Source of the DNA: Vicinamibacteria bacterium
GTDB taxonomy: Bacteria; Acidobacteriota; Vicinamibacteria; Marinacidobacterales; Marinacidobacteraceae
Length of the DNA: 64,000 bases
NCBI GenBank assembly: GCA_963668695.2
Contig: CAXXLQ010000004.1
Location: 2,176,001 to 2,240,000 of the forward strand
Reading direction: 5' to 3'
Part shown: positions 5,744 to 55,196 of the stretch, in pieces
Position numbering within the stretch: position 1 is the first letter of the stretch
Layout: each line of letters opens with the position of its first letter
Notes under the pieces: generated by a model
The model's input: the letters and a program-made list of their open reading frames with translations, nothing else
What the model was told of the DNA's origin: nothing
The model's database searches: none
Made by a program: the position numbers and the translations under genes

Positions 5744-6529
5744 AACAGCCGGTGGTGGAACCCACGCGGCCCAGTTCTCCCGGTGGGGGCTCGGCCGGCG
5801 ATCCATCCCGGCCAAACAGCCTGTAATGAAACCCGCGCGGCCCAGTTCTCCCGGTGGGGGCTCGGCCGGCGATCCATCCCGGCCAAACAGCCGGTGATGA
5901 AACCCACGCGGCCCAGTTCTCCCGGTGGGGGCTCGGCCGGCGATCCATCCCGGCTGAACCGCGTCGCTGCGCGCCGCTCATCGTTGCGTTTCGGTCGCAA
6001 TACACCCGGGCCAGTTCTCCCGGTGGGGGCTCCTCCCTCACGCGCCTTGTCAGCCGGGCCCCCACCGGGAGAACTGGCCCCACCGGGAGAACTGGGCCTC
6101 GCCGGCCTCGGCGCTCACGCGGGTTCCACCACCGGCTGTTCACCGCGTCGCTTCGCGCCGCTCATCGTTGCGTTTCGGTCGAAATACACCCGGGCCAGTT
6201 CTCCCGGTGGGGGCTCCTTCCTCACGCGCCTTGTCAGCCGGGCCCCCACCGGGAGGACTGGCCCCACCGGGAGAACTGGGCCTCGCCGGCCTCGGCGCTC
6301 ACCCGGGTTCCACCACCGGCTGTTGACCGCGTCGCTTCGCGCCGCTCATCGTTGCGTTTCGGTCGAAATACACCCGGGCCAGTTCTCCCGGTGGGGGCTC
6401 CTCCCTCACGCGCCTTGTCAGCCGGGCCCCCACCGGGAGGACTGGCCCCACCGGGAGAACTGGGCCTCGCCCCCACCGGGAGAACTGGCCGGTCTCGGCG
6501 CGCACCCGGGTTCCACCACAGGCTGCTAA
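5744..6529 (+). mobile_element. Family A nested MITE array A2 (3 left halves + 3 right halves)
   Basis: 71-bp left units start at 5744, 5815 and 5886; right units end at 6140, 6324 and 6529. AACAGCCGGTGGTGGAACCC and GGGTTCCACCACCGGCTGTT are perfect inverted repeats. Confidence 0.85.
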
Positions 6530-6687
6530 CCAGCCCGGTTTGCCAGCGCGGTTTCGCAAACCGCGCGGCGCCGACCGCGCAAAAACGCGGCCGGGCACCG
6601 CATTCCCCGGGGAGATCCCCCGGGGAGAACTGCCCCGGAGGCGGGTCGGCGTCCGGTGGCCGGCCGCGCTCCTGCTCCACCGGCGTT

Positions 6688-6738
6688 CCCTCCCCGGCGG
6701 GGCCATCGAGCGAAGCGAGATGGCCCCGCCGGGGAGGG
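6688..6738. terminator. Perfect 20-bp-stem hairpin just downstream of the M16 operon stop (terminator or REP-like)
   Basis: CCCTCCCCGGCGGGGCCATC-gagcgaagcga-GATGGCCCCGCCGGGGAGGG. There is no clear U-tract, so terminator function is uncertain. Confidence 0.5.
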
Positions 6739-6743
6739 ATTCC

Positions 6744-8273
6744 CTACTGGCCCTTCGGGACCACCTCCAGCGTGAGCGGATCGCGTTCCGGGAGATGCGT
6801 CACCTCGCCATTCAGCAGATCGGCCATCTTGGCGCGCCCCTCGGGATCGCCCGGGCCGATGTCGTCCCAGACCCCGACCACCAGCATCACCATCTGGTCC
6901 GGACGGAGGTACTTTTGCGCCACCGCCATCACGTCGGCGGCGGTGACCGCCTCGATCTGCTCGCGCCAGCGCACCCAGTACCCGTGGTCGCGCTCCAGGA
7001 ACGCGTCGTTCGCGAAGATGCCGGCGCGGGCCTGCGCGCTCTCGAACCGGCGCGGGAAGCTGTCCACCAGCGAACGCCTGGCAAGCTGGAGTTCCTCCGG
7101 CGACACTGCTTCGTCGCGCATCCGATGGACCTCTTCCAGAGCGATCGCGGCAGCCAAAGCCACCGTCGGGCTCTTCGATTGGTAGCCCATCGAGTAGGCG
7201 CTCGGCCCGAGGGGATTGAAGCCGAAACGGCCGCCGGCGCCGTACGCCAGCCCCTCGTCGGACCGTACCCGCTGCATGATCCGGGAGGTGAAGCCGCTCG
7301 CTCCCAGGATGTGGTCCATCACCTGGATGGCGGCCCGCTCGGGGTTGTCCCAGTCGTCCCAGCGCGGCGCCAGGTTGCCGATCCGGACCTTGCCCTGCGG
7401 GATGTCCTTCTCGACGTGGTAGATGCCCGGGGCAGGGTTTGGCACCTCGTGCGGGGGCGGCCAGTCCACCGCCGCCGCATCATCCGCCGCCGGCCACGCT
7501 CCGAGCCGCTCCTCCAGCATCGCCAGGATCTCCGCGGTGTCCACGTCGCCCGACACCGACCACACCATGTGCTCCGGCCGCCAGTAACGGCGGTGGAAGT
7601 CCCGCAAGTCGTCGGGAGTGATGGCGTCCAGGTGCCCGGAGGTCATCCGCCGCCCGAGGTAGTGGTCTTTTCCGTACAGCAGGAAATCCCACTCGCGGCC
7701 GAGCAGGCTGTCGGCGTCGTCGTTCCGCTGCTTCAGGTCCTCCCGCACGTTCTCCCGCCGCACCGAGAACCGCGCCTCATCGAACCGCGGGCGCATCAGC
7801 ACGTCGAAGAAGAGATCGAGGCTCTCCTCGAACACCGGGGTGATGGTGCGGAGCGATCCCCGCGCCTCGGTGTCCCGGGAAGAGGCCGAAATCCGGGCGG
7901 CGAGGAAGTCGATCCGCTCGTCCAGTTCCTCCGGACTCCGGTCGCCGGCCCCGCCCTCGCGCATCATCGTCGCGGTCAACGACGCGAGCCCCACCTGGTC
8001 CGCGGGCTCCAGGAAGCTGCCGATCCTGAGCGTCACGCCCAGCCGGATCAGCGGCAGGGTGCGGTCCTCAACCACGATCACCGGGATGCCGCTGCTCAGC
8101 TTGTGGTGGTAGTCCGAGCCGTCGGGCGTCTCGAACACGAAGTCCGGGAAGACCAGCTCTTCGGGCCGGTCCGGAATGTCCTGCCCGGCAACTTCCTGCC
8201 CGGCAACTTCCTGCGCGGGGGAAAGACCCGCCGCCACCAGGGCCAAACCCAGGAAAACCGTCCGTCCTTTCAT
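6744..8273 (-). CDS. M16 (pitrilysin-family) peptidase, non-catalytic partner subunit, secreted
   Basis: Signal peptide, GLASLTATMM in place of HxxEH, and SRIMQRVRSDEGLAY motif. ATGA overlap with the upstream M16 gene. Confidence 0.9.
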   Translation of the reverse strand: MKGRTVFLGLALVAAGLSPAQEVAGQEVAGQDIPDRPEELVFPDFVFETPDGSDYHHKLSSGIPVIVVEDRTLPLIRLGVTLRIGSFLEPADQVGLASLTATMMREGGAGDRSPEELDERIDFLAARISASSRDTEARGSLRTITPVFEESLDLFFDVLMRPRFDEARFSVRRENVREDLKQRNDDADSLLGREWDFLLYGKDHYLGRRMTSGHLDAITPDDLRDFHRRYWRPEHMVWSVSGDVDTAEILAMLEERLGAWPAADDAAAVDWPPPHEVPNPAPGIYHVEKDIPQGKVRIGNLAPRWDDWDNPERAAIQVMDHILGASGFTSRIMQRVRSDEGLAYGAGGRFGFNPLGPSAYSMGYQSKSPTVALAAAIALEEVHRMRDEAVSPEELQLARRSLVDSFPRRFESAQARAGIFANDAFLERDHGYWVRWREQIEAVTAADVMAVAQKYLRPDQMVMLVVGVWDDIGPGDPEGRAKMADLLNGEVTHLPERDPLTLEVVPKGQ

Positions 8274-10030
8274 CGTGCATCCTCCCCTTCGGGCGGGAGT
8301 TCGGCGAGCCGCTCCCGGATCACCTGCTCCACGTACTGGAGCGCCCCCTGCATCTGCGGCGGCGCCTGTCCCATCATCTGGCTGAACTGCGCGAGCGTCG
8401 CCTCCAGACTCGCCCGGTCCGTGGACTCCCGGATCTGCCGGATCTGGGCCAGCATCTGGGTCTGCACCGCCGCCGGCAGGCCGGCGAGCTCGGCCGGCAC
8501 CGGCTCCGAAGCCGTCCCGGCCGTGCGCGTGTAGTGCGCGACCGCCCGGTTCGTGGGGACCAGGTACTTCCCGGCAACCCGTTTGACGTCCTCTTCGGTG
8601 ACCGCGAGGGTCGCGTCGGTCCACTCGTTGATGTAGTTCCAGTCGCCCAGCGAGTCGTAGACGAGGAGCTGGATCAGCAGGAAGAACCCGCTGTCGAGCC
8701 GCTCCCACGCCGCGGCGGCAACCTGGTTCTTGACCTTCTGGATCTCCTCGGGGGGGATCGGCTCTTCAACGAGCCGCCGGAGCTCCCGCTCGATGGCGGC
8801 CTCGAGATCGGCCGGGGTCGCCTCGCCCTTGGCTTCCGCGCTGATCTCGATCAGTCCCGCCCACTTGCGGTTGTCCTGGAACGCCGCCGCGGAGCTCGCG
8901 ATCTCGTCCCCGAGCACCATGGTCTTGTAGAGCCGCCCGGTCCGCCCGTTCAGCAATCCGGACAGCACGTCGAGCGCGTACTGGTCGCGGTGCCGGAAGG
9001 GCACCGTGTGGTAGCGGAGGGCGACCTGCGGCTGGCAGTCGCAGGTCGCATCCAGCCGCTTCCCGGCGTTTTGCTCCATCTCCAGGGTGACCACGTCGGG
9101 GGCCTCGGGACCCGGCGAGAGGCGCCCGAAGTACTTCTCGGCCAGCGCCTTCGCCTCTCCGAGTTCGAAGTTCCCGACCAGCGCGCCGGTGAGGTTCCCG
9201 GGGGCGTAGTAGGTGTCGTAGTACTCCTGCGCCTGGGCGAGGGTGAACACCTGGAGGTCCGACGGCCAGCCGACCACCGGCCAGGAATAGGGGTGCGACT
9301 GCCAGAACATGGCGTCGAACGCCTCGTCGAACTCCCCGGTGGGGGTGGACTCGGTGCGGAGCCGGCGCTCCTCGTAGACCACGTCGCGCTCCGAATAGAA
9401 CTCGCGGAAAACCGGCCGCAGCAGGCGCTCCGACTCCATCCAGAACCACAGCTCCAGCCGGTTCTGCGGCACTGTGATGAAGTACACCGTCTGGTCGTTG
9501 GAGGTGAACGCATTCATCCCGCTGGCGCCCGCCTCGGTGTAGATGCGGTCGAACTCGTCCTTGACCATGAGCGTCCGCTGCTCTTCCACGAGCGCATCGA
9601 ACTCACCCCGCAAGGCGACCAGCTCTTCGGGCAGGTCCGTCTCGCCGAAGGGGTCGTCGATGAGGCCCAGCCGGCTCGCCTCCCGCCGGTCCCGGTAGAT
9701 GGCCCGGATCTTCTCCTGGACGGCCTCCTGCTCCTCGATGATGGCCTGATCCCGCTCGGCGTCGGTGGTCCCGACGGTCGGCGTTCCCTTGAACATCATG
9801 TGTTCGAAGAAGTGGCTCAGCCCGGTGATCCCCGGCCGTTCGTTGGCCGATCCCACGTGGGCCGCCCAGCCGGCGGATACGGTGGTCATTTCGGGACGGA
9901 CGACGGCGAGAAAGCGCATCCCGTTCGAGAGGGTGAACTCCTCCACGGGGACCTTCGCCTGCCCGAGCACGGGGGCGGGGACCGCGAGCGCGAGGACGAG
10001 CGCCGCGAGCCGGAGGGTCGGATGTTTCAT
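8270..10030 (-). CDS. M16 zinc peptidase, catalytic subunit, secreted
   Basis: Signal peptide, GLSHFFEHMMFKGT (HxxEH), NAFTSNDQTVY and ERDVVYEERR motifs. Confidence 0.93.
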   Translation of the reverse strand: MKHPTLRLAALVLALAVPAPVLGQAKVPVEEFTLSNGMRFLAVVRPEMTTVSAGWAAHVGSANERPGITGLSHFFEHMMFKGTPTVGTTDAERDQAIIEEQEAVQEKIRAIYRDRREASRLGLIDDPFGETDLPEELVALRGEFDALVEEQRTLMVKDEFDRIYTEAGASGMNAFTSNDQTVYFITVPQNRLELWFWMESERLLRPVFREFYSERDVVYEERRLRTESTPTGEFDEAFDAMFWQSHPYSWPVVGWPSDLQVFTLAQAQEYYDTYYAPGNLTGALVGNFELGEAKALAEKYFGRLSPGPEAPDVVTLEMEQNAGKRLDATCDCQPQVALRYHTVPFRHRDQYALDVLSGLLNGRTGRLYKTMVLGDEIASSAAAFQDNRKWAGLIEISAEAKGEATPADLEAAIERELRRLVEEPIPPEEIQKVKNQVAAAAWERLDSGFFLLIQLLVYDSLGDWNYINEWTDATLAVTEEDVKRVAGKYLVPTNRAVAHYTRTAGTASEPVPAELAGLPAAVQTQMLAQIRQIRESTDRASLEATLAQFSQMMGQAPPQMQGALQYVEQVIRERLAELPPEGEDAR

Positions 10031-10133
10031 GGCGAGGATGGTAGCGGCGGGCCCGGAGCCCACGGATTGATGGGGTTACCGACTGTTACGATATCCGGCT
10101 AACCCGGGTTCTCCGGGACGGGGGAAATCGGAC

Positions 10134-11867
10134 ATGAATCTGACGCTCAGGAACCCCGAGCGCCTCCGGATTCCGGCGGCGCTGCTGCCGGCGCTGCTGC
10201 TCCTCGCGCCGCTCTCCGCGAGCGCCGAGAGCGCCGCGATTCGCGCCCGTCAGGGCATGGTGGTGTCGCAGAGCGCGATCGCCTCCGAGGTCGGCGCCGC
10301 GGTGCTGCGCGACGGCGGAAATGCGGTGGACGCCGCCGTGGCGACCGCCTTCGCGCTCGCCGTCACCCATCCCACCGCCGGGAACATCGGCGGCGGCGGG
10401 TTCCTGGTCTGGCGCCCGGCCAGCGGGGAGCCGCTCGCCTACGACTTCCGCGAAAAGGCCCCGGCGGCCGCGACCCCGGACATGTGGCTCGACGAGAACG
10501 GGGAGTACAGCTTCCAGATCCACCACCTGAGCCACAAGGCGGTGGGAGTCCCCGGGACGGTGGCGGGCCTCCGCCTCGCCTGGGAACAGCAGGGCTCGCT
10601 GCCCTGGGAGCGGCTCGTGCGGCCGGCGGTGGACCTCGCGAGCGACGGTTTCCCGATCTCCCACGGCCTCGCCGGCTCGCTCGCGCGGGTGCTCGAACGG
10701 ATGACCCAGCATCCGGCCTCGGTGGCCCAGTTCTCGAAGGACGGCACGCCCTACGAGCCCGGCGAAATCCTCCGCCAGCCCGATCTGGCCGGCAGCCTGG
10801 AGCGGATCCTCGAGAACGGGACCGCCGGTTTCTACGAGGGAGAGACCGCCGGGCTGCTGGTCGAGGAGATGGATGCGGGAGGCGGCCTCATCACCCTCGA
10901 GGACCTGAAGAACTACCAGGCGATGGTCCGGGAGCCGATCCGGGGCGAGTACCGCGGCTACGAGATCATCTCGATGCCGCCCCCGAGTTCGGGCGGCACG
11001 GCGATGGTCCAGATGCTGAACATCCTGGAAGGATTCGACGTCGCCGCGAACGGGTTCGGATCGGCCGCCAACATCCACCTGATGGCCGAAGCCATGCGCC
11101 GGGCCTACGCGGACCGCGCGCTGCACCTGGGCGATCCTGACTTCAACCCCGCGATCCCCATCTCCCGGCTGACCTCGAAGGACTACGCGGAGGAGCTGCG
11201 GGGCACGATCGACGAGGAACGGGCTTCCGTTTCCTCACCGTCCAGTTTCGAGTGGACCACCGAGAGCAACGAGACGACCCATTTCTCGGTGGTGGACAAG
11301 GACCGCAACGCCGTGTCCCTCACCTACACCCTGGAGTTCGGCTTCGGCTCGGGGATCGTGGTGCCGGGGGCCGGCTTCTTGCTGAACAACGAGATGGGGG
11401 ACTTCAACGGGGCGCCGGGCCTGACGAACGAGCGCGGCCTGATCGGCACGGATCCGAACCTCGCGGAGCCGAACAAGCGGATGCTCTCCAGCATGAGCCC
11501 GACGATCGTCGCGAAGGACGGGGAGCTGTTCATGGTCACCGGCACCCCGGGCGGACGGACGATCATCAATACCGTGATGCAGACCATCCTGAACGTGGTG
11601 GACCACGGCATGAACGCCCAGGAAGCGGTGGACGCCGGCCGGGTGCACCACCAGTGGCTCCCCGACCGGATCAACTACGAAAAGCAGATGTTCTCGCCCG
11701 ACACCCTTTCCATCCTGGAGGCCTACGGCCACCAGGTGAACGAGATCGGGGCCCAGGGCGCCGCCGAGGTGATCGTCAACCTCGTCGAGGAGGGCGTCCT
11801 TGAGGGTGGCGTGGACCAGCGCCGGGCTGACGGCGGAATCGCCATCCACGACGAGAACCCCCAGTAG
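10134..11867 (+). CDS. ggt: Gamma-glutamyltransferase
   Basis: GGNAVDAAVATAFAL, NIGGGGF, PPPSSGG, catalytic ETTHFSVVD, LNNEMGDF, RMLSSMSPT and GTPGG motifs. Confidence 0.96.
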   Translation: MNLTLRNPERLRIPAALLPALLLLAPLSASAESAAIRARQGMVVSQSAIASEVGAAVLRDGGNAVDAAVATAFALAVTHPTAGNIGGGGFLVWRPASGEPLAYDFREKAPAAATPDMWLDENGEYSFQIHHLSHKAVGVPGTVAGLRLAWEQQGSLPWERLVRPAVDLASDGFPISHGLAGSLARVLERMTQHPASVAQFSKDGTPYEPGEILRQPDLAGSLERILENGTAGFYEGETAGLLVEEMDAGGGLITLEDLKNYQAMVREPIRGEYRGYEIISMPPPSSGGTAMVQMLNILEGFDVAANGFGSAANIHLMAEAMRRAYADRALHLGDPDFNPAIPISRLTSKDYAEELRGTIDEERASVSSPSSFEWTTESNETTHFSVVDKDRNAVSLTYTLEFGFGSGIVVPGAGFLLNNEMGDFNGAPGLTNERGLIGTDPNLAEPNKRMLSSMSPTIVAKDGELFMVTGTPGGRTIINTVMQTILNVVDHGMNAQEAVDAGRVHHQWLPDRINYEKQMFSPDTLSILEAYGHQVNEIGAQGAAEVIVNLVEEGVLEGGVDQRRADGGIAIHDENPQ

Positions 11868-11913
11868 AACCCCCAGTAGAACCCCCAGTAGAACCCCCAG
11901 TAGAACCCCCGTT
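11854..11913 (+). repeat. 12-bp tandem repeat (AGAACCCCCAGT x ~5) spanning the ggt stop codon
   Basis: Four exact copies plus AGAACCCCCGTT. Confidence 0.9.
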
Positions 11914-11955
11914 AGAACTGAACCTTCCGGCCGCAGCCGGAGAGGAGGTCGCAGC

Positions 11956-13510: not shown

Positions 13511-13557
13511 GCACAATCCCCACGATCACACCGGAAACCCGGTGGAGGGAGCACACC

Positions 13558-15309: not shown

Positions 15310-15310
15310 C

Positions 15311-24009: not shown

Positions 24010-24196
24010 CTAGCAGCCTGTGGCAAAACCCACGCGGCGTTCGACCGGCGATCCATCCCGGCTGAACCACTCCGCTTCGCTGCGTTCTGCGTTGCGTTTC
24101 GGTCGAAATACACCCGGTATTCCTCCCTCACGCGCCTTGTCAGCCGGGTGCCTCACCGGCCTCGGCGCTCACGTGGGTTTCACCACAGACTGCTAA
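24010..24196 (+). mobile_element. Family A MITE, copy A3 (minimal form with no H 20-mers)
   Basis: TIRs TAGCAGCCTGTGGCAAAACCCACG and CGTGGGTTTCACCACAGACTGCTA (21/24 match). Confidence 0.85.
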
Positions 24197-24265: not shown

Positions 24266-24838
24266 ATGTCCCGAATCACATTCCTCGCCGCGCTGCTCGC
24301 CGCGGCCTTCGCGCTGCCGGCAGCCGCCCAGAACCCGAACCCGCGGGGTACGGTGAAAGCCGATGCCGGCGGCGCCATGGTCTCGATCGACTACGGCCGC
24401 CCGGCCCTCGGCGACCGGATGCTCGGCGACCTGCTCAGCATGCTGCCCGGGGACCGGGTCTGGCGAGCCGGTGAGAACCAGGTCACCATCCTCGAGACCT
24501 CGGCGCCGCTGAAGATCGGCACCGAGACCGTGCCGGCGGGCCGCTACAGCCTCTATCTCCACGTTCCGGAGAACGGCGATTGGCATCTGCTCGTCAACCG
24601 GCACCAGGGCATCGCGCTTGGCGAGCTCTGGTCCGAGGCGCCCGCTGCGATGCGCGCCGAGCCCTGGCCCATGCTCAGCGGATACGGCCAGATCGAGGAC
24701 CAGGAGCAGGCCCGGATCGCGCTCGAGGGGGCGGAGACCTCCGGCGACGGGAACGTCTTCGAGATCAGCGCCGGAAGCGGAATGATCCGTTTCTCCTGGG
24801 GCGGAACCGCCTACCAGACGACCCTCGGGTCTCCCTGA
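24266..24838 (+). CDS. DUF2911-domain secreted protein
   Basis: AGGAG RBS, signal peptide, IDYGRP, VWRAGENQVT and VPAGRYSLY motifs. Confidence 0.85.
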   Translation: MSRITFLAALLAAAFALPAAAQNPNPRGTVKADAGGAMVSIDYGRPALGDRMLGDLLSMLPGDRVWRAGENQVTILETSAPLKIGTETVPAGRYSLYLHVPENGDWHLLVNRHQGIALGELWSEAPAAMRAEPWPMLSGYGQIEDQEQARIALEGAETSGDGNVFEISAGSGMIRFSWGGTAYQTTLGSP

Positions 24839-24886
24839 CGGGGGCTCGGGTCTCCCTGCCGGCGGCTCGGGTCTCCCTGCCGGCGG
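24824..24886 (+). repeat. 21-bp tandem repeat x3 across the DUF2911 stop codon
   Basis: CTCGGGTCTCCCTG(A/C)CGG(G/C)GG at 24824, 24845 and 24866. Confidence 0.85.
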
Positions 24887-24962
24887 CGGCGCGCCGGGCG
24901 GCCCGGCGCTCCCCGCTTCGGGAACGGATCGTGCGAGAGCGCGTTTTGTCTTCCCGAAGCAC

Positions 24963-29913: not shown

Positions 29914-30155
29914 TTAACAGCCTGTGGCAAAACCCACGCGGCCCAGTTCTCCCGGTGGGGGCTCGACCGGCGATCCATCCCGGCTGAACCACTCCGCTTC
30001 GCTGCGTTCTGCGTTGCGTTTCGGTCGAAATACACCCGGGCCAGTTCTCCCGGTGGGGGCTCCTCCCTCACGCGCCTTGTCAGCCGGGCGCCTCGCCCCC
30101 ACCGGGAGAACTGGCCAACCTCGGCGCTCACGCGGGTTTCACCACAGGCTGTTAA
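29914..30155 (+). mobile_element. Family A MITE, copy A4, flanked by TTAA on both sides
   Basis: TTAA-CAGCCTGTGGCAAAACCC...GGGTTTCACCACAGGCTG-TTAA. Confidence 0.88.
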
Positions 30156-31186: not shown

Positions 31187-31450
31187 GGTGCCGGCCTGAA
31201 GGCCGGCGTTCCCAGCCTGCGCACCATCCTCCCTTCCGGGATTCACCCCGAGACGGGAACCAGCCCGGATGTCGGGGTTCTTCGCCGCCGTCCGCCTTCG
31301 GCGGGCTGTGCCGGCCGGAGGCCGGCGTTCCAAGCCGTCCCCGCGCTTTTTCTCCGGCCGCGATGCGCGATGCCGGTGTCAACGCCCCCGCCGGGAGGAC
31401 TGGGCCTCCCCGCTCTCGGTGCTTACCCGGGTTCCACCACAGGCCGTTAA
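31187..31450. repeat. G-type palindromes plus the right end of a family A MITE (A5)
   Basis: TGCCGGCCTGAAGGCCGGCGTTCCC; 31309-31353 is the reverse complement of a motif at ~12905; region ends GGGTTCCACCACAGGCCGTTAA, supplying the beta-lactamase-like gene's stop. Confidence 0.7.
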
Positions 31451-44230: not shown

Positions 44231-44237
44231 GGGCCAA

Positions 44238-45599: not shown

Positions 45600-47039
45600 A
45601 TGAATCATAATACCAACGAAGCCTTCGACCTCGTGGTCATCGGGAGCGGCCCCGGAGGCTACGTGGCCGCCCTGAAGGCCCGGGCCGCCGGACTACGGAC
45701 GGCGATCGTGGAGAAGGAAGAGCGCTTCGGCGGCACCTGTCTTCACGTCGGCTGCATTCCGAGCAAGGTGTTCCTTCATACCGCGTCGCTGCTCGACGAG
45801 ATCCGGGCGGCGAACAAGGTCGGCATCACGGTGGCGGATCCGGCCCTCGATTGGAACGGACTGAAGCGCCGCAGTCGCCGGGTGATCGCCAAACTCGCCG
45901 GCGGCGTTTCGCTGCTTTTGAAGCGCGCGGGTGTCGAAACAGTTCGGGGATTCGGGAGACTGGCCGGTCCCGGTCGGGTCGAGGTCATCCCCGCGGAATC
46001 CGCCGAGGCGGGCGCCGCGCCCGGGGAGGCAGTGCGGTTCCTCAGTACTCGCAATGTGATCCTCGCGACCGGTTCCGAGGCCAGGACGCTGCCCTTCCTG
46101 CCGGTGGACGGCGATCGGATACTGACCAACGCGGAGATGTTCTCGCTTGATGAGCTTCCCGCCCGGTTAGGCATCATCGGGGCCGGGGCGGTGGGCGCGG
46201 AGTTTGCCTCCATGTTCCGTAGCTACGGCTCCCGCGTGGAACTCTTCGAGGTGCTGCCCCGCGTGCTGCCGCTCGAAGATGCTGAAGTCTCCGAAGTGGT
46301 GGGCAGGGCGTTTCGCAAACGGAAGATCCAGGTGCGAACCGAAGCCCGAGTGGAGGCCGCCGACGTCGTGGAAACGGGCGTTCAGGTCCGCTACCGCGTG
46401 GGTGAGGAGACCACGACAGCCGAATACGACCGGCTGCTGGTAGCGGTGGGCCGGGCTCCGCGGACGACGGATATCGGGCTCGAGACCGTCGGAGTCGAGC
46501 TGGAAAGGGGCGGCTTCATCCCGGTGGACTTAGCGTGCCGGACCAGGGCGCAAGGCGTCTTCGCCATCGGGGACGTCTTGGGGAGCGCCCAGCTGGCCCA
46601 CGTGGCCTCCGCCGAGGCGGAGGTGGCGGTAGCGACCATCGCCGGCCAGGACGTTCGGCCCCTTCGGCGGGACCGGATGCCGGCGGCCACCTACTGCGTA
46701 CCGGAGGTCGGCTCGGTCGGGCTTACCGAGGAAGCGGCCGCCGCTGCCGGTCACGAGATCCGGGTGGGCCGCTTCCCATTCGCCGCGAACAGCAAGGCGA
46801 ACATCCTGGGAGATCCGACCGGTTTCGTGAAGGTGGTCGCCGAGGCGCGCTATGGAGAGGTGCTCGGAGTCCACATCGTCGGCCCGCACGCCACCGACCT
46901 GATCGCCGAAGCGGTGGTCGCGCTCGAGCACGAAGCGACCCTGGAGTCGCTCGCGCGCAGCGTCCATCCTCACCCCACGCTTTCCGAAGCGGTGTCCGAA
47001 GCGGCGCTCGCTGCTTCCGGCACGCCCCTTCACGTTTAA
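45600..47039 (+). CDS. lpdA: Dihydrolipoamide dehydrogenase (E3)
   Basis: GSGPGGY, GGTCLHVGCIPSK, GAGAVG, AIGD and HPHPTLSE motifs. Confidence 0.96.
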   Translation: MNHNTNEAFDLVVIGSGPGGYVAALKARAAGLRTAIVEKEERFGGTCLHVGCIPSKVFLHTASLLDEIRAANKVGITVADPALDWNGLKRRSRRVIAKLAGGVSLLLKRAGVETVRGFGRLAGPGRVEVIPAESAEAGAAPGEAVRFLSTRNVILATGSEARTLPFLPVDGDRILTNAEMFSLDELPARLGIIGAGAVGAEFASMFRSYGSRVELFEVLPRVLPLEDAEVSEVVGRAFRKRKIQVRTEARVEAADVVETGVQVRYRVGEETTTAEYDRLLVAVGRAPRTTDIGLETVGVELERGGFIPVDLACRTRAQGVFAIGDVLGSAQLAHVASAEAEVAVATIAGQDVRPLRRDRMPAATYCVPEVGSVGLTEEAAAAAGHEIRVGRFPFAANSKANILGDPTGFVKVVAEARYGEVLGVHIVGPHATDLIAEAVVALEHEATLESLARSVHPHPTLSEAVSEAALAASGTPLHV

Positions 47040-47277
47040 CAGCCTGTGGCGAAACCAACGCGGCCCAGTTCTCCCGGTGGGGGCTCGACCGGCGATCCAT
47101 CCCGGCTGAACCACTGCGCTTCGCTGCGTTCTGCGTTGCGTTTCGGTCGAAATACACCCGGGCCAGTTCTCCCGGTGGGGGCTCCTCCCTCACGCGCCTT
47201 GTCAGTCGGGCGTCTCGCCCCCGCCGGGAGAACTGGCCAACCTCGGCGCTCACGTGGGTTTCACCACCGGCTGTTAG
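47036..47277 (+). mobile_element. Family A MITE, copy A6a; its TTAA flank contains the lpdA stop
   Basis: TTAA-CAGCCTGTGGCGAAACC...GGTTTCACCACCGGCTG-TTAG. Confidence 0.85.
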
Positions 47278-47713
47278 CAGCCCGTGGACAAAGTGAACCG
47301 GCATTTGAGCCGCGATCCATCCCGGCCAAACAGCCTGTGATGAAACCCACGCGGCCCAGTTCTCCCGGTGGGGGCTCGGCCGGCGAACCATCCCGGCTGA
47401 CCGCGTCGCTTCGCGCCGCTCATCGTTGCGTTTCGGTCGAAATACACCCGGGCCAGTTCTCCCGGTGGGGGTTCCTCCCTCACGCGCCTTGTCAGTCGGG
47501 CGTCTCACCGGCCTCGGCTCTCACGCGGGTTCCACCACCGGCTGTTCACCGCCCCGCTTCGCGGTGCTCATCGTTGCGCATCGGTCGGAATACGCTTGGT
47601 ATTCCTCCCTTGCGCGCCTTGTCAGCCGGGCCCCCACCGGGAGGACTGGCCCCACCGGGAGAACTGAGCCTCGCCGCTCTCGGTGCTCCCCCCACTTTAT
47701 CCACGGGCTGCTG
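47275..47713 (+). mobile_element. Family A nested pair A6b (inner element 47329-47546 inside an outer element)
   Basis: Outer TIRs GCAGCCCGTGGACAAAGTG / CACTTTATCCACGGGCTGC match each other. Inner TIRs AACAGCCTGTGATGAAACCC / GGGTTCCACCACCGGCTGTT match each other. Confidence 0.85.
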
Positions 47714-48460: not shown

Positions 48461-48483
48461 GGGAACCCACCGCCAGGAACGCC

Positions 48484-49464
48484 GTGCCCGTCACCTACTT
48501 CGAGGCCATCCGCCGGGCGCTGCGCTCGGAGATGGAACGCGATCCCCGGGTGATCCTGCTCGGCGAAGACATCGGACTCTACGGCGGTGCCTTCCGTTTG
48601 ACGGACGGCTTCCTCGATGACTTCGGACCGGAGCGGGTACTCGACACTCCAATCAGCGAGGAGGGATTCACCGGGGTTGCCGTGGGCGCGGCGCTTGCCG
48701 GATTCCGTCCGGTCGTGGAGTTCCAGTTCATGGATTTCATCGCGAGTGCGTTCAACATGGTCACGAACTTCGCCGCGAAGAGCCGCTACCGCGCCGGCGC
48801 GGCAGTTCCCATCGTGCTTCGCGGCCCTTCCGGCGCCGGAGTCCGCGCCGGACCGTTCCATTCACAAAGTCCCGAGGCCCACTTTGCCCACACTCCGGGG
48901 ATCAAGGTGGTGGCGCCCGCGACCGCGCCGGACGCCGCGGGCCTCCTCCGGGCCGCGATCCGCGACGACGATCCGGTTCTGTTCCTCGAGCACAAACGGC
49001 TCTATCGGAGCCTCCGGGTTCCAGATGACGAGTTCGAGCGAGCGCCGGAAGTGATTCCCTTGGGAAGAGCGGCGATTCGGCGGGCAGGGGACGCACTCAC
49101 GATCGCCTCCTACGGGGCGGCGGTATGGATGGCGCTCGAGGCCGCGGAACGACTGGCTGCCGAGGGGGTCGAGGCGGAGGTGCTGGACCTGCGCTGTCTG
49201 GTCCCGCTCGATCGGGAGGCGGTCTTCGATTCCGTCCGGCGCACCAGCCGGTTGCTGGTGCTCCACGAGGCCAACCTGACCGGGGGTTTCGGCGGCGAGA
49301 TCGCAGCGCTGGCCGCCGAACACCTCTTCGGTGATCTGGACGCGCCAGTGACCCGGATCGCGGCGGCCGATACCCCGGTGCCCTATGCCGCGGAACTCGA
49401 GGATGCGGTGCTGCCGAACGCCACCCAGGTCGTCGAAGCGGCGCGCCGGTTGGTGCGGTACTGA
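48484..49464 (+). CDS. 2-oxoacid dehydrogenase E1 beta subunit
   Basis: LGEDIGLYGGAF, DTPISE, EFQFMDF, GPFHSQS, FLEHK and DLRCLVPLD motifs. Confidence 0.93.
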   Translation: MPVTYFEAIRRALRSEMERDPRVILLGEDIGLYGGAFRLTDGFLDDFGPERVLDTPISEEGFTGVAVGAALAGFRPVVEFQFMDFIASAFNMVTNFAAKSRYRAGAAVPIVLRGPSGAGVRAGPFHSQSPEAHFAHTPGIKVVAPATAPDAAGLLRAAIRDDDPVLFLEHKRLYRSLRVPDDEFERAPEVIPLGRAAIRRAGDALTIASYGAAVWMALEAAERLAAEGVEAEVLDLRCLVPLDREAVFDSVRRTSRLLVLHEANLTGGFGGEIAALAAEHLFGDLDAPVTRIAAADTPVPYAAELEDAVLPNATQVVEAARRLVRY

Positions 49465-49544
49465 TTCCCAGGCCTGCTCTTGGCGAGGCAGTCCTGACCA
49501 GCGCCCCGTTCCGGTGGCGTACAGCGGTCCGAGCCGAGAAGCGG

Positions 49545-49786
49545 CTGCCGGCAGCGAACTTTGTTCGCTGCCCGCGTTATCGGGGGAAAGTGTGAAAGGG
49601 GGGATTCTCCTCTTTCACAAGAAGGTAACGACAAATCGGAACTCGCCGCCGCGCGCGGGGAGCGCGCAAGGGAGTTTTGATTTGCGGCGCGCAGCGCCGG
49701 GCGGTCCGGGCACGGGGCGAACCAAGCAGACCCATGCCACGAAACACCACCGGCAATGCTGGTGCGCCCCGTTCCCGGACCGCTAG
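49545..49786 (-). repeat. Family B composite repeat in reverse orientation, starting at the lipA stop
   Basis: Minus strand reads TAGCGGTCCGGGAACGGGG-49 nt-CCCCGTGCCCGGACCGCCC, then C, D and E. Confidence 0.82.
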
Positions 49787-50706
49787 GGGATCTGGTTCGC
49801 GGCGTGGTACGAACTTCTCACCAGCGGGCCCGCCTCCACGTGACGGAGCCCGATCGCCTTGCCCCGCTCGGCAACCGCGCGGAACTCGTCCGGCGGGACA
49901 AAGCGCTCGACGGGCAGATGCGCGGGAGTGGGCTGGAGGTATTGGCCCGCGGTGAGAATGTCCACGGAATTCCGCACGAGGTCTGCCATTAGCGAATCCA
50001 GTTCGTCGGCGGTCTCCCCGAGTCCGAGCATCACTCCGGTCTTGGTGAGCGCTTCCGGCCGGAGTTCCTTGGCGCGGCGGAGCAGGTCCAGCGAGCGCTG
50101 GTAGCGGGCGCCGGGACGGACGGCCTTGTAGAGGCGCGGCACCGTTTCCACGTTGTGGTTGAGGACCTCCGGGGCCTCCGCCATCACGATGGCGAGCGCC
50201 GCCGCATCCCCCTGGAAATCCGGAATCAACACCTCGACGGTGGTTTCCGGACAGCGCCGCCGGACCGCGCGGATGGTTTCTGCGAAGATTCCGGCGCCCC
50301 CGTCGGCGAGGTCGTCGCGGTTCACCGAAGTGATCACCGCATGGCGGAGATCCATGAGTTCGACGGCGTCCGCGACCCGCTCGGGTTCCTCGAGATCGAG
50401 GCCCACCGGGCGCCCGGTGGTCACTGCGCAGAACCGGCAGGCACGCGTGCAGATGTCACCCAGGATCATGAACGTCGCGGTTCCCTGGCCCCAGCATTCC
50501 GCGACGTTCGGGCAGCGCGCCTCTTCGCACACCGTGTGGAGGTTCTTCTCGCGAAGCAGCCTTCTGAGGCGCGCCCAGGCGGGGCCGGAGGGCATCCGCA
50601 CCTTGAGCCAATCCGGCCGGGGATGGCGCGCGGGTTTCGGTCCCGCTCCGGCGGTGGGGCTCAGCCCCGATCCGATGACCGGCAGGGGAACGACGGCGCC
50701 TGTCAA
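49783..50706 (-). CDS. lipA: Lipoyl synthase
   Basis: CEEARCPNVAEC, CTRACRFC, NHNVETV, GQYLQP and LVRSSY motifs. Confidence 0.97.
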   Translation of the reverse strand: MTGAVVPLPVIGSGLSPTAGAGPKPARHPRPDWLKVRMPSGPAWARLRRLLREKNLHTVCEEARCPNVAECWGQGTATFMILGDICTRACRFCAVTTGRPVGLDLEEPERVADAVELMDLRHAVITSVNRDDLADGGAGIFAETIRAVRRRCPETTVEVLIPDFQGDAAALAIVMAEAPEVLNHNVETVPRLYKAVRPGARYQRSLDLLRRAKELRPEALTKTGVMLGLGETADELDSLMADLVRNSVDILTAGQYLQPTPAHLPVERFVPPDEFRAVAERGKAIGLRHVEAGPLVRSSYHAANQIP

Positions 50707-52088
50707 GGACGGAGGTCGCCCTCGGGCCAGTTTTCGAGGCGGGACTTCACGGCCGCCATGAACTGGTCCGCGACCGCGCCGTCGATCAGGCGATGGTCGA
50801 ACGACAGCGCCAGGAACACCATGGAACGCACCGCGATGGCGTCCCCGTCCACGACCACCGGCCGCTTGTGAACGCCCCCGACTCCCAGAATCGCGACCTG
50901 CGGTTGGGCGATGATGGGAGTGCCGAAGAGCGCCCCGAAGGGACCCGGGTTCGTGATCGTAAAGGTGCCGCCCTGAACCTCGTCAGGGGTAAGCCCCCCG
51001 GTGCGGGCCCGCTTGGCCAGATCGGTGATTCCCCGGGCCAGCCCCATGAAGTTCCTTTCGTCGGCGCGCGCGAGTACCGGCACGATGAGCCCGTCCGGAA
51101 GGGCAACGGCGATGCCCAGATTCACGTTCCGGTGGTACACGACGTGGTCATCGCCGAGCGAAGCGTTCAGGACCGGGAACTCGCCGAGCGCGTCAATCGT
51201 CGCCTGGGCGAAGAACGGCATCAGGGTGAGCCGCACGCCGGCGCGCTCCTCGAAGGCCGTCCCGTTCGAGGCCCGGACGGCGACCACCCGCGACACGTCG
51301 ACCTCGAACACCGTGGTGACGTGAGCCGAGGTCCGGCGGGAGCGGATCATGTGATCGGCAATGGACCGCCGCATGTGGGAGAGTGGTTCGGTCCGGTCGC
51401 TTTCCGAGGCTTCCGGAACCTCGGGAAACGGCTCGGCTGGAACCAGGGCAGGCGTCGGAACGTCGTCGCTCGTCTCCGCCGGGGGCGCGGCGGGAGCCGG
51501 GAGCGGTTCGACCGCCGCGGGTTCCGGAGGAGCGGAGGGAGCGGCGGTTTCGGCCTGGGCTGCATCGCGGCCTTCCAGGAAGGCGAGCATGTCCTGTTTG
51601 CTGACCCGTCCGCCTTCGCCGGTCCCGGGAATGCTGGCGAGGTCCACGCCCTGTTCCCGCGCCATGCGCCGCACGAGCGGCGAACTGCGCGGCTGACGGC
51701 CGACGCTCTTGGCGCGCGCCCCCTCCCCATCGAGCGAGGGCGCCGGCGCTTCGGAGGCGGCCTCGCCGCCGCCGTCATCGGTCTCCGGAGCACCGGCCGG
51801 TGTCGGTTCGCCCGCCGGCTCCTGCGGTTCGCCGGGGGACCAGACTTCGCCTTCCGCCGCAATCCGGCCGACGACGGTGTTCACCGTGACGGTTTCGCCC
51901 TCCGGAACCAGGATCTCTACGAGACGCCCGGTGAGCGCCGCGGGAACCTCGGTATCCACCTTGTCGGTCGCGATGTCGAAGAGGGGATCATCCCGTTCGA
52001 CGGTGTCGCCGACCGCGACCCGCCACTTGGTGATCGTCCCCTCGGTGATGCTCTCGCCCATCTGGGGCATGATGATGTCGCTGGGCAC
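50703..52088 (-). CDS. Dihydrolipoamide acyltransferase (E2) of a 2-oxoacid dehydrogenase
   Basis: Lipoyl domain with TDKV, E3-binding SSPLVRRMA...GTGEGGRV, and catalytic FDHRLIDG. Confidence 0.95.
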   Translation of the reverse strand: MPSDIIMPQMGESITEGTITKWRVAVGDTVERDDPLFDIATDKVDTEVPAALTGRLVEILVPEGETVTVNTVVGRIAAEGEVWSPGEPQEPAGEPTPAGAPETDDGGGEAASEAPAPSLDGEGARAKSVGRQPRSSPLVRRMAREQGVDLASIPGTGEGGRVSKQDMLAFLEGRDAAQAETAAPSAPPEPAAVEPLPAPAAPPAETSDDVPTPALVPAEPFPEVPEASESDRTEPLSHMRRSIADHMIRSRRTSAHVTTVFEVDVSRVVAVRASNGTAFEERAGVRLTLMPFFAQATIDALGEFPVLNASLGDDHVVYHRNVNLGIAVALPDGLIVPVLARADERNFMGLARGITDLAKRARTGGLTPDEVQGGTFTITNPGPFGALFGTPIIAQPQVAILGVGGVHKRPVVVDGDAIAVRSMVFLALSFDHRLIDGAVADQFMAAVKSRLENWPEGDLRP

Positions 52089-52126
52089 GGGTCGGGAATT
52101 CTATTGCGAGCGGAGTGGCGGCTTCC

Positions 52127-54139
52127 TCACCCCACCGGGAGGTGTAGCGACAGGAACTCGAGAATCTTCTCCAGGAAGGCGTAGGCGGCGCCCCGATCGG
52201 TCTCCCAACGGAGGACCGCACGGCCGGCGTCACCGCGGAAATACAGCTCAACGAACGGGTAATCGCTGCGCGACCGCAACTCCTCCAGGAAATCGCTCTT
52301 GGCTGCGAGCGGGACCTCCGGTGTTTCCTCGCCGTGAAAGGACAGGAGTGGCGCCTGAACCGCGGCTCCCGCGCCGTTCAGCGACAGTCGACGGTAGTTC
52401 TCGAGGTTTCCGCGGATCGGTCCGAGTTCCCGCTCCAGGAAGGCGCGGCGCTCCGGGTCGAGTGCGCCGTATAGCGTGCGCGGGTCGGCGAACCCCAGGG
52501 CCTCTACGCCGCAGACGAAGGCATCCGGGTGACGCGCAAGCGCCGCCAGCGCCAGGAAGCCGCCGTACTCCATGCCGAAGATGCAGGCCGCATCCGGGGA
52601 AATATCCGGAAACGCCTGCGCGGCGCGGGTGGCTGCAACCAGATCTTCAAGGTCCGAGGCCCCCCAATCGCCGTCATTGAGCGCGGCGAATGCGGCGCCG
52701 CGTCCCCCCGTGCCCCGCACGTTGGGTGCGAGGACCGCATAGCCCCTCGCGGTGAGCAACTGCACGATGGGATCGAACCCGTTCCGCCACGCATCTCCCG
52801 CCTTGCCCCGAACGTGGACGAGCAGGGGCGCCGGCGCGGGCTCCGACGCCGCGGCGGGCCGGTAAAGGAACGCCCCCACGGTGACTCCCTCGTCCCGCTC
52901 GATCTCGATCCGCTCCGGCCGGGAAAAGCTCCGCACGTCGACTTCGGGAAACAGGGTGTCCGTGATCCGCTCGCGCCCCCCGGTGATGGGGAAGGACCAC
53001 ACGTCGCGGGGAAAGGCCGGCGCCTCATGAAGCGCGAAAAGTCTGCTGCCGTCGCGGCTCCAGCGGAGGCCGCGCGCGACGCCGGCGCCGCGGGTCACGA
53101 TCCGGACCCGCCCGGCCGCGCTCCAGCGTCCGTTTTCGTCGCGCTCAAGGCGCGACCGGTGGATGCGCCGGCTGCCGCGATCGGCCTCGATCCAGGCAAC
53201 TTCGAGTTCTCCGGCCGCACTTCCGGCGGGGCGGAAACGGGGTTCCGCAAGGTCGCGGTCCCCGGCAAGGAGAGGGTAGGGTGGGGCCGTGCCGTCGGCT
53301 GGCGCGAAGTACACGGCGTCGAACCCGCCGTCCGGGCATTCGGGGGTGCAGGTGGTTCCGCTTGCCCACGCGAGGCCGACGCCGTCCGGCGTCCAGTCGG
53401 GCAACCCGCGCACCAGACGGCCGCTTCCGGAAGTCACCACCACCGGCCCGGCCCCCGCTTCCACCGCCAGCACCGCCAGTTCCCGCCCGTCGCCGGAAGC
53501 GAAGCTGTAGGCGATCCGGCGTCCGTCCGACGACCAGACCGGCGGGCCCTCCTCCCCGGGATGGTTCGTGAGCCGCCGCGCGGGGCCACCGTCCACCGGC
53601 ACGAGCCAGATGTCCTGCCCCGTGTCGGGCCTGCTCTCCGGGCCGCTGCCGGGCGCCCGCCGGCCGACGAATGCGATCCGCTTCCCGGCTGGATCCACCG
53701 CCGGGGAGCGCGCCGCGAGCTCCGGCCCGGTCAGGGGCTCCGGTTCCCCCCCGAGAGCCAGCAGGAAGAGGCGGCCGGCTTCCAGTTCGTCACCGCGCGG
53801 CCGGCGTCCTGACACGAAGACGACGGACATTCCGTCACCGAGAAACCGTGGCCCCGAGTCCCAGCGCCGGCCCTCGGTGAGCGGGCCCGGGCGGGCGCCG
53901 GCGGCGGCGAGGAAGAGGGTCGAACGGTTCCGGGTGGATGCCGCGAGGACCACCCGGCGGCCGTCCGCGGACGCATCGAAGTCGAGCGCCTGCGGAAGGC
54001 CGAGGGCCGTATTGAGCGCAAGCTGCTGGTCCGGCTCGATGAGTTGCGCCTGCGGCGCCTGCCGCGCTTCCGCCGCGGCCGATCCGGCGGTGCAAAGCAG
54101 AAGGGCCGCGGCGCCGGCCCAACCCGCGGGACGCTTCAT
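52127..54139 (-). CDS. S9-family (TolB-like propeller + alpha/beta hydrolase) protein lacking the catalytic triad
   Basis: Signal peptide, PD40-like repeats (WSSDGRRIAY), GYAVLAPNVRGTGG; GMEYGG in place of GxSYGG. Confidence 0.85.
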   Translation of the reverse strand: MKRPAGWAGAAALLLCTAGSAAAEARQAPQAQLIEPDQQLALNTALGLPQALDFDASADGRRVVLAASTRNRSTLFLAAAGARPGPLTEGRRWDSGPRFLGDGMSVVFVSGRRPRGDELEAGRLFLLALGGEPEPLTGPELAARSPAVDPAGKRIAFVGRRAPGSGPESRPDTGQDIWLVPVDGGPARRLTNHPGEEGPPVWSSDGRRIAYSFASGDGRELAVLAVEAGAGPVVVTSGSGRLVRGLPDWTPDGVGLAWASGTTCTPECPDGGFDAVYFAPADGTAPPYPLLAGDRDLAEPRFRPAGSAAGELEVAWIEADRGSRRIHRSRLERDENGRWSAAGRVRIVTRGAGVARGLRWSRDGSRLFALHEAPAFPRDVWSFPITGGRERITDTLFPEVDVRSFSRPERIEIERDEGVTVGAFLYRPAAASEPAPAPLLVHVRGKAGDAWRNGFDPIVQLLTARGYAVLAPNVRGTGGRGAAFAALNDGDWGASDLEDLVAATRAAQAFPDISPDAACIFGMEYGGFLALAALARHPDAFVCGVEALGFADPRTLYGALDPERRAFLERELGPIRGNLENYRRLSLNGAGAAVQAPLLSFHGEETPEVPLAAKSDFLEELRSRSDYPFVELYFRGDAGRAVLRWETDRGAAYAFLEKILEFLSLHLPVG

Positions 54140-54178
54140 TCCGGAAGCGTAGTCTCCCGTCCGCATGGCCCCCGGCCC

Positions 54179-55196
54179 GGCAGCCTGTGGTGGAACGCCA
54201 CGCGGCCCAGTTCTCCCGGTGGGGGCTCGGCCGGCGATCCATCCCGGCCAACAGTCGGTGATGAAACCCACGCGGCCCAGTCTCCCGGTGGGGGCTCGGC
54301 CGGCGATTCATCCCGGCCAAACAACCGGTGGTTCTCCCGGTGGGGGCTCGGCCGGCGATTCATCCCGGCCAAACAACCGGTGGTGGAACCCACGCGGCCC
54401 AGTTCTCCCGGTGGGGGCTCGGCCGGCGATCCATCCCGGCCAAACAACCGGTGGTGGAACCCACGCGGCCCAGTTCTCCCGGTGGGGGCTCGGCCGGCGA
54501 TCCATCCCGGCCAAACAACCGGTGGTGGAACCCACGCGGCCCAGTTCTCCCGGTGGGGGCTCGGCCGGCGATCCATCCCGGCTGAACCGCGTCGCTGCGC
54601 GCCGCTCATCGTTGCGTTTCGGTCGAAATACACGCGGTATTCCTCCCTCACGCGCCTTGTCAGCCGGGCGCCTCCCCGGCCTCGGCGCTCACGCGGGTTC
54701 CACCACCGGCTGTTCACCGCGTCGCTGCGCGCCGCTCGTCGTTGCGTTTCGGTCGAAATACACCCGGGCCAGTTCTCCCGGTGGGGGCTCCTCCCTCACG
54801 CGCCTTGTCAGCCGGACCCCCACCGGGAGAACTGCGCCTCCCCGGCCTCGGCGCTCACGCGGGTTCCACCACCGGCTGTTCACCGCGTCGCTGCGCGCCG
54901 CTCGTCGTTGCGTTTCGGTCGAAATACACCCGGGCCAGTTCTCCCGGTGGGGGCTCCTCCCTCACGCGCCTTGTCAGCCGGACCCCCACCGGGAGAACTG
55001 GGCCTCCCCGGCCTCGGCGCTCACGCGGGTTCCACCACCGGCTGTTCACCGCGTCGCCGCGCGCCGCTCGTCGTTGCGTTTCGGTCGAAATACACCCGGG
55101 CCAGTTCTCCCGGTGGGGGCTCCTCCCTCACGCGCCTTGTCAGCCGGGCGCCTCCCCGGCCTCGGCGCTCACGCGGGTTCCACCACAGGTTGCTAG
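54179..55196 (+). mobile_element. Family A nested MITE array A7 (6 left halves + 4 right halves)
   Basis: Left units of ~71 bp (one internally deleted) run to ~54582; right units end at 54714, 54880, 55046 and 55196 (ACAGGTTGCTAG). Confidence 0.85.

Follow-up and report, generated by a model that had tools for sequence, protein, structure and literature searches.

How do the two halves of a small transposable element come to stand in runs, left halves first and right halves after them? The question is raised by a stretch of 64,000 nucleotides (nt) from a Vicinamibacteria bacterium, hereafter the window, which comprises positions 2176001-2240000 of contig C4. Here, a MITE (miniature inverted-repeat transposable element), family A, occurs both as plain monomers of one left unit (L) and one right unit (R), written L1R1, and as arrays of the form LnRm. 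Judging from their sequence, the arrays are true nests, in which complete inner units lie inside complete host units, and the inner units form a dedicated subfamily with almost no free copies.

The three arrays of the window are given below with the means by which they were recognised. Both L and R contain a variable number of an 18-base-pair (bp) unit, S (CCAGTTCTCCCGGTGGGG).

5746-6525, plus strand: array L3R3 with 13 S units (sequence reading, pattern, Tandem Repeats Finder, census)
5746-5814, 5817-5885 and 5888-5956, plus strand: L units of L3R3
5958-6138, 6142-6322 and 6326-6525, plus strand: R units of L3R3
5942-5956, plus strand: pseudo right end GATCCATCCCGGCTG inside the element, located at the 3' terminus of the innermost L of L3R3; inner units directly follow such sites
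47278-47710, plus strand: nested L2R2 (sequence reading, pattern, census)
47278-47328 and 47548-47710, plus strand: outer L and outer R of L2R2, of a divergent 'B-type' subfamily with ACAAAGT-type ends
47331-47399 and 47400-47544, plus strand: inner L and inner R of L2R2, enclosed by the B-type outer units
54181-55192, plus strand: array L6R4 (sequence reading, pattern, Tandem Repeats Finder, census)
54181-54250, 54252-54319, about 54322-54371 (truncated), 54374-54442, 54445-54513 and 54516-54584, plus strand: L units of L6R4
54586-54712, 54716-54878, 54882-55044 and 55048-55192, plus strand: R units of L6R4

A first-pass annotation of the window had placed these arrays, and the monomers listed further below, within 4 bp of where they are found, and its reading of them as L3R3, L2R2 (beside a monomer) and L6R4 holds, with one L of L6R4 truncated. 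L units in the window measure 68-70 bp, and R units 127, 145, 163/164, 181 or 200 bp (127 + 18k). Tandem Repeats Finder reports periods of 71 bp and 166-184 bp at the arrays, with 94-99% matches, as well as 18-bp periods.

The same organisation is found throughout the genome of this sponge-associated acidobacterium, a 4.10-Mb assembly in four contigs with 67% GC (G000). For the census, S was deleted in silico, and hidden Markov models (HMMs) of the S-less consensus units (L, 51 bp; R, 127 bp) were run against the stripped genome. The census was redone in this way because HMMs containing S overlooked S-less L units, leaving 181 apparent 'R only' loci. It identified 567 family A loci, which together span 148.7 kb (3.6% of the genome). 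Those consisting only of full units in a single orientation were taken as pure; these number 398, contain 581 L and 506 R units, and comprise 288 L1R1 monomers and 110 LnRm arrays. Balanced arrays (33 L2R2, 12 L3R3 and 2 L4R4) account for 47, those with more L than R for 52 (e.g., 20 L2R1, 7 L3R2, 6 L3R1, 5 L4R2 and 2 L7R2), and those with more R than L for 11. In all 398 pure loci the L-run comes first and the R-run follows; the LnRm grammar is far beyond chance. No inverted nested form was encountered in the genome census, nor is there a strand bias of the arrays along the chromosome. 'Solo L' loci are mostly elements whose R escaped detection because S sits near the R start.

Nesting is read from the pairing of ends. 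When the 24-nt ends of the 47 balanced arrays are paired concentrically (the i-th L with the (n+1-i)-th R), the match beats that of parallel pairing in 31 arrays, is worse in 3 and ties in 13. The first-pass annotation had noticed that the outer ends at 47275 match each other, and such pairing of outer ends with outer ends is borne out both here and in the array at 47278, as well as in rare outer subfamilies, whose two outer ends agree with each other in unbalanced arrays too. The inner units are of a different kind: a GGTGATGAAACCC-type left end is carried by 78 of 183 inner L units, versus 4 of 298 single-L loci, and the inner R ends are of one type in 83 of 108. Only six free monomers carry inner-like variants, none of them of the main inner type. 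In 7 of the 8 balanced arrays with a B-type host, the bases remain host-type from 6 nt past the junction, and in the array at 47278 the host-type sequence likewise resumes just past it. Inner units always point in the same direction as the host, at an internal site that is a degenerate version of the right end. Adjacent inner L units differ at a mean of 4.0 positions, and since they usually differ, the runs are not merely fresh duplications. However, 13 of 83 adjacent pairs are identical (versus 1.7% of random pairs), so that local duplication does happen, although it is not the main source of units.

Could the runs have been produced by slippage or unequal crossing-over of two independent modules, with no nesting event, as might be imagined for BOX- or BIME-like repeats? 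The identical adjacent pairs would fit, as would neighbouring units in L6R4 that are 99% identical by Tandem Repeats Finder, the tandem runs formed by S and by a second module described below, and differences between haplotypes that affect one arm only. The relation between n(L) and n(R) within the arrays would fit too: the correlation anticipated by the first-pass annotation exists across all pure loci (Spearman 0.72), yet it is weak among the 110 arrays (0.17, p = 0.08). Such slippage, however, does not explain why outer L and outer R share one subfamily and the inner units another, why ends pair concentrically, why the extra TT of a real element end stands at R>R junctions, or why arrays with n(R) > n(L) are rare. 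The nesting evidence largely refutes this explanation, which we regard as improbable.

A slippage-like contribution, as suspected at the outset, is nevertheless apparent in the imbalance of the arrays. Contig C1 corresponds to C4:304184-421223 (99.5% identity) and contig C3 to C4:3505137-3538141 (97.6-99.7%), and by alignment these small contigs represent a second haplotype, or a variant strain, for the corresponding parts of the main contig. Between C1 and C4, 11 of the 16 C1 loci are unchanged, all plain monomers included, and one, at a contig end, is not comparable. The differences affect one arm only: L4R3/L1R3, L5R2/L3R2, a short form/L3R1, and L2R1/L2R2 (the last matched by position). 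The L4R3/L1R3 pair is identical except for a clean indel, 214 bp long, made up of three L units. Chimeric units are a second indication. Among B-type hosts, 7 of 8 arrays with an L excess have a chimeric outer R with inner-type 5' markers and host-type 3' markers, and the 5' half of the outer R is inner-like in 81% of the 52 L>R arrays, 45% of the 47 balanced arrays and 13% of the 288 monomers. These inner-like halves are the footprint of unequal recombination between R units. Given the chimeric outer R units and the arm-only changes between 99.5%-identical haplotypes, array imbalance is attributed to unequal recombination; the ratio of 52 L>R to 11 R>L arrays fits, as the shorter L units would recombine less often. 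Arrays also collapse by recombination between two S units, a short LE-S-...-RE form being present in the related genome G001 where G000 has L2R2.

The haplotype contigs bear on a further explanation, namely that errors of long-read assembly or polishing made or inflated the arrays. The source genome is a metagenome-assembled genome (MAG) with a completeness of 91.7% and a contamination of 9.3%, a figure with which second-haplotype contigs are in keeping, and Logan contigs of four runs break at array edges (54224-54227 and 55166 for L6R4). Most of the sequencing runs in which the region occurs are sponge metagenomes. Against an artefact stand the same grammar at more than 100 loci, the same junctions in independently assembled MAGs of other species, and private variants and a truncated unit within arrays. 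Short contigs from other runs also span L>L, L>R and R>R junctions, though these could stem from any array. An assembly origin is therefore considered very unlikely.

What kind of element is family A? Besides the arrays, the window contains the following copies, all identified in the census.

484-716, plus strand: monomer L1R1 with 3 S units
24014-24192, plus strand: monomer L1R1 without S, 179 bp
29918-30151, plus strand: monomer L1R1 with 3 S units
31378-31444, plus strand: partial R unit
47040-47273, plus strand: monomer L1R1, whose flanking TA (inside TTAG) is common with the next element

In the 288 monomers of the genome, the 24-nt ends differ at 5.5 positions versus 8.1 after shuffling, in agreement with the claim of a MITE bounded by terminal inverted repeats (TIRs). 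The commonest outer flank pairs are CTAG/CTAG (53), TTAA/TTAA (40), TTAG/CTAG (24), TTAA/TTAG (24) and CTAG/CTAA (11). In these, the central TA is shared, the base adjacent to the element end is complementary and the outermost base is free, a pattern that points to an element [A/G]CAGCC...GGCTG[T/C] with a TA duplication. At an orthologous empty site, the relative G008 has a single TG where G000 and G001 have TA-element-TA. The IS5 group makes a 4-bp YTAR target duplication. An assignment to IS5/IS1182-type ends, proposed in the first-pass annotation, is not supported, since only the central TA is duplicated, as in the TTAG/CTAG and TTAA/TTAG pairs, and identical 4-mers occur in only 110 of 410 flank pairs. 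Rather, by its ends and flanks, family A is a TIR-bounded, two-part MITE that duplicates TA, as IS630/Tc1-mariner elements do. A TA target with TA duplication, combined with TIRs of about 24 nt, is the habit of this group, as described for ISY100 in PMC2170065, which also reports that IS630-type enzymes insert almost only at TA, in either orientation, and that ISY100 in vitro inserted at AA/TT in 2 of 39 cases.

Several IS630-family transposases are indeed found in the genus: 30 IS630-like loci, with three IS630-like (DDE_3) loci in the present genome. However, the CAGCC(T/G)GTGG ends were seen on none of the genome's IS630-like loci, nor on the 16 of the 30 genus loci that were read; these copies end otherwise (TAGTGTGGTGTCC..., TAGTGTCGTGTCA...). 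The transposase bounded by family A ends that was expected to exist did not emerge, as end searches gave no IS-sized family A pair in the genome, where the IS5/IS1182 Pfam families were not searched. A second end search yielded 56 LE..RE candidate pairs, all overlapping annotated neighbouring MITEs, with the open reading frames between them not examined. Partial left-end hits, considered as an autonomous copy, all belong to L units holding the 90-bp module M described below. There is no Y1 transposase in the genome, so that a REP/RAYT reading of the S unit is unsupported here.

Two observations concern neighbours of the element. Several IS630-like insertion sequences lie in a MITE-flanking TA, exactly so at L113 (G000 C4:667048-668207; GGCTGC-TA-GTGTGG...) and at L134 in the relative G004 (GGCTGT-TA-TACATAG...), suggesting that MITE-adjacent TAs are favoured targets. 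A shorter MITE-like family shares the terminal CAGCC(C/T)GTGG and has a different body (..GTGGAAAAAGCACCCCG..). It is found at L119 (G008), where it occupies the orthologous intergenic region, and in G000 C4 near 184763, 562222 and 1470325.

The site at which inner units lie was said to be single, internal and similar to the element's own right end. Each of these points stands: the same junctions recur across arrays and species, and the 3' end of L, GATCCATCCCGGCTG, agrees with GTTCCACCACCGGCTG, the right end, in 13 of 16 positions in our alignment of the consensus sequences. The junctions read CCCGGCTG(A)ACCGCG (L>R), CCCGGCCAAACA(G/A)CC (L>L) and GGCTGTTCACCGCG (R>R). A host site CCCGGC-TGA-ACCGCG thus becomes CCCGGC-CAA-[ACAGCC...GGCTGT]-TC-ACCGCG when filled. 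L before R ends in GGCTG in 314 of 398 cases, while 137 of 183 L units standing before another L read GGCC(A); at the filled junction the GGCTG of the empty site is gone, as expected of a homing-type element. As the first-pass annotation had noticed, there is no clean target duplication at filled junctions. The nested junctions are invariant, keep no TA, and their two-sided types do not co-vary as duplications would. In other species, L>L junctions read CAAA at 7 loci and CAGA at 1, and R>R junctions TTC at 3, TTT at 1 and TTA at 1. All junction variants are 1-2 substitutions from a TTAA junction, and GGCTGTTAACC itself was seen once. Cut-site or duplication schemes based on TA, AA, CA, TGA or 4 bp were tried, and none reproduces both sides; an AA/TT insertion of the ISY100 kind does not do so either. 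The inner left terminus is decayed to CAACC in 72 of 183 inner units (39%); among monomers the figure is 15 of 288, and among outer units 2 of 110.

The main rival to the reading set out below is that self-targeted transposition continues. A transposase bound to the pseudo-end would capture an inner-type element in one orientation, each round adding one L and one R, and imbalance would arise later by recombination. This account is attractive because the site is a 13/16 match to the right end, host-type bases return 6 nt past the junction in 7 of 8 balanced B-type hosts and just past it in the array at 47278, end pairing is concentric, and adjacent units mostly differ. Moreover, since outer pseudo-ends read GGCC(A) and the innermost GGCTG, only the centre would remain a target. 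It accounts poorly for a site with no TA and no duplication, where the host TG becomes CA, and for the lack of any inverted nested form given that IS630-type enzymes insert in either orientation. The decay of 39% of inner left termini, the near absence of free source copies of the main inner type, the failure to find a transposase with family A ends in the genome or at the 16 genus loci read, and haplotype differences confined to one arm also speak against it. Continuing self-targeting is possible, though we consider it a minority prospect. The 'safe harbour' proposed earlier thus survives in part: a fixed site like the element's own right end exists, but junctions that lack TA and are direct only and invariant, decayed inner ends and essentially no free copies of the main inner type fit homology-driven copying at least as well as continued transposition into that site.

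Comparison with relatives provides evidence on how arrays and modules move. Neither 47036-47713 nor 54179-55196 is filled in G001, where the flanks are about 95% identical, or in G004, and a 3989-nt contig of run X1, from a related strain, joins 54175 to 55196 with 5 letters between. Another L2R2 is common to G000 and G001 and absent from G008 and G010. Whole arrays behave as insertions bounded by their outer ends; the comparison of empty and filled sites proposed in the first-pass annotation shows empty sites in G001, G004, G008 and G010 and a visible TA duplication. Within loci, the monomer 29918-30151 varies among three species, with no S in G004, one in G001 and three in G000, the gains lying at three canonical positions, each with 1-3 neighbouring substitutions. 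This in-place gain shows that copies take up modules from other copies. The orthologue comparison for the monomer at 24014 is confounded in G000 by the loss of a tandem paralogue. At one locus, an intact B-type monomer in G001 corresponds in G004 to an L4R3 with B-type outer ends and an inner-type interior, which was counted in favour of copying between copies.

The explanation that we favour, at about even confidence, is that one or a few old self-insertions founded the inner block, which now spreads by homology-directed copying and unequal crossing-over. The founding insertion would have occurred at the L/R boundary, with junctions now 1-2 substitutions from a TTAA junction. The inner copies have since become locked in, as their sequence shows by the lack of a flanking TA and the many decayed left termini. 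The inner block would then enter other copies, and change in number, through homology-dependent copying: breaks at the intact innermost pseudo-end may be repaired from filled copies in a homing-like manner, alongside unequal crossing-over. This step draws support from the chimeric units, the arm-only haplotype changes and the in-situ gain of S. Finally, whole arrays, whose presence and absence is observed between relatives, would move as units bounded by their outer ends. Copying is preferred to repeated TA transposition because of the missing TA, the fixed orientation, the invariant junctions, the decayed termini and the lack of free sources.

A stricter version can be put forward tentatively, as a 'homing MITE'. 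Here a transposition-dead inner element would survive only inside host MITEs and spread via cutting of the pseudo-end and repair from a filled copy; the innermost copy would regenerate the site, so that stacks grow, and S and M would use the same copy-in route. In the homing of group I introns and inteins, an empty allele is cleaved and repaired from the filled allele, the filled junction lacks the site, and orientation and junctions are fixed. The likeness lies in the proposed logic only. No endonuclease has been identified here, the 'alleles' would be hundreds of dispersed MITE copies, and stacking would be possible because the site is restored by the innermost copy.

Several observations weigh against homology-directed copying of the inner block. 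The precise boundaries in 7 of 8 balanced B-type hosts and in the array at 47278 would need very short conversion tracts, and targeted insertion explains them more simply. The change of TGA to CAA...TC at the site is explained by no model considered, and no candidate nuclease or transposase acting on family A ends was found in the genome. A concentric test restricted to inner units was uninformative (10 ties, 2 better and 2 worse), and there is no age gradient from centre to edge once a 2-column difference in end form is allowed for. The weak correlation of n(L) with n(R) among the arrays belongs here too, as does the fact that unit counts rest on the MAG assembly, the reads-level data being short Logan contigs only. 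Lastly, the favoured model does not predict what is seen in an orthologous pair of L2R2 arrays (L164:1790-2275, at G000 C4 about 1005290-1005775, and G001 C17 about 806600-807100), in which flanks, inner unit and junctions agree while both outer arms are B-type in G000 and A-type in G001. Two readings are offered: a second use of the same TA, or joint conversion of both arms.

The S unit deserves separate consideration. Direct counting gives 1288 exact, 278 one-mismatch and 65 two-mismatch copies (1631 in total, 79% exact), and the count of mismatched copies overturned an initial view of S as an invariant 19-mer. Within family A loci lie 1391 of the 1631 copies (85%), where they occupy a small number of fixed sites, either alone or repeated in tandem every 18 bp; examples in the window are 5913-5930, 6060-6095 and 47632-47666. 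The exact S 19-mer is also present in many MAG records, from many species, named Candidatus Marinacidobacterium, Vicinamibacteria or Acidobacteria, in at least 111 stretches. S occurs, too, in a different small repeat centred on a hairpin such as GCCGGTCTGAAGACCGGC, flanked by GGAGCGCCGG / GCCTTCAGAC; many of the 240 S copies not in the MITE belong to it. The second module, M, is 90 bp long, starts with CCCGAGTCAAGAGGG..., and is present in 124 copies forming 63 runs of 1-9 units. It is mostly inserted in L after GGC(A/G)TTC, with some copies following GCGATTC in another repeat, and is thus a second guest forming tandem runs at a fixed site. Examples, all outside the window, are G000 C4:59400-60075, 96000-96730, 256340-256770 and 300960-301320.

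Could the arrays be functional structures under selection, such as structured RNAs, protein-binding platforms or terminators, rather than selfish DNA alone? When folded, a monomer gives a long hairpin (-68.5 kcal/mol, z = -6.1), S is exact in 1288 copies and across species, and in our own reading the arrays lie in intergenic and promoter regions, L6R4 forming about 1 kb between two divergent gene starts. Strong folding is, however, expected of any element with inverted ends. There is no Rfam match within the window, and arrays are present or absent between close relatives and variable between haplotypes. A selected function for the arrays therefore seems distinctly unlikely.

Some further features of the window can be mentioned. 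L3R3 is preceded by the L>L junction motif GGCCAAA at 5739-5745, so that its true outer L seems to have been cut off or lost. A fragment of an IS3-family-like transposase frame at about 5389-5735, identified by eye with no family search made, ends at the start of the array. At 47027-47039, the TTAA flank of the MITE provides the stop codon of the upstream gene (CAC GTT TAA); the empty-site counterpart in G001 and G004 reads CAC GCC TGA. Two tandem repeats are unrelated to the MITE: 24824-24887 (21 bp x 3.0), present in a higher number of copies in G001 and absent from G004, and 11854-11918 (12 bp x 5.4).

How do these arrays compare with known systems? In plants, MITEs such as Castaway and Gaijin of rice are described (Jiang and Wessler 2001, as cited in PMC5172404) as forming self-insertions and nested multimers, with a high rate of self-insertion in some families; the multimers are attributed there to independent insertion events. 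The likeness consists in copies lying inside their own family and in concentric structures (PMC5172404), and it extends to the pairing tested here, outer ends with outer and inner with inner. The present arrays differ in having one internal site, one orientation, invariant junctions, no duplication, a dedicated inner subfamily and a bacterial host. Independent nested insertions should each bring their own target duplication and occur in either orientation. This is not the case in family A, where junctions read CAA.../...TC and no inverted form exists.

Among bacterial repeats, pneumococcal BOX elements (boxA-boxB(n)-boxC) and the BIME-2/REP arrays of Escherichia coli are likewise modular, intergenic and variable in module number, with changes from strain to strain. 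Unlike family A, they have no host/guest hierarchy of complete elements and no grammar of an L-run followed by an R-run, and to our knowledge they lack TA-flanked outer ends comparable to those of family A. The CMITE arrays of corals show a local increase in copy number attributed to replication slippage (PMC2872659); they are eukaryotic and consist of whole elements placed head to tail (LRLR), whereas here halves are stacked (LL..RR) round a fixed site. The Geobacter MITE Chunjie was considered as a precedent for nested arrays and set aside, being, according to PMC3184786 and PMC10969869, an ordinary MITE with 9-bp direct repeats. In a term search, the words nested and tandem are absent from a 2024 review of prokaryotic MITEs (PMC10969869), and no description of prokaryotic nested-MITE arrays, or of the repeats of this lineage, was found in the open-access full text searched.

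MITEs are usually treated as simple, independently inserted units. Family A instead has an internal grammar: host elements enclose a subfamily dedicated to the inner position, and sub-modules of 18 bp and 90 bp occupy fixed sites. Repeated halves of an element's own family at a fixed spot, together with fast recombinational reshaping, are unusual for bacteria, and copy-number states differ even between 99.5%-identical haplotypes. The arrays, which insert into promoter regions (e.g., 54181-55192), are hypervariable strain markers and, equally, a hazard for the assembly and binning of sponge-symbiont genomes. If break-induced copying of the inner block is true, it would amount to homing-like propagation of non-coding DNA, and family A would offer a natural system for following how repeat families are moulded by pseudo-ends, ectopic gene conversion and unequal crossing-over.

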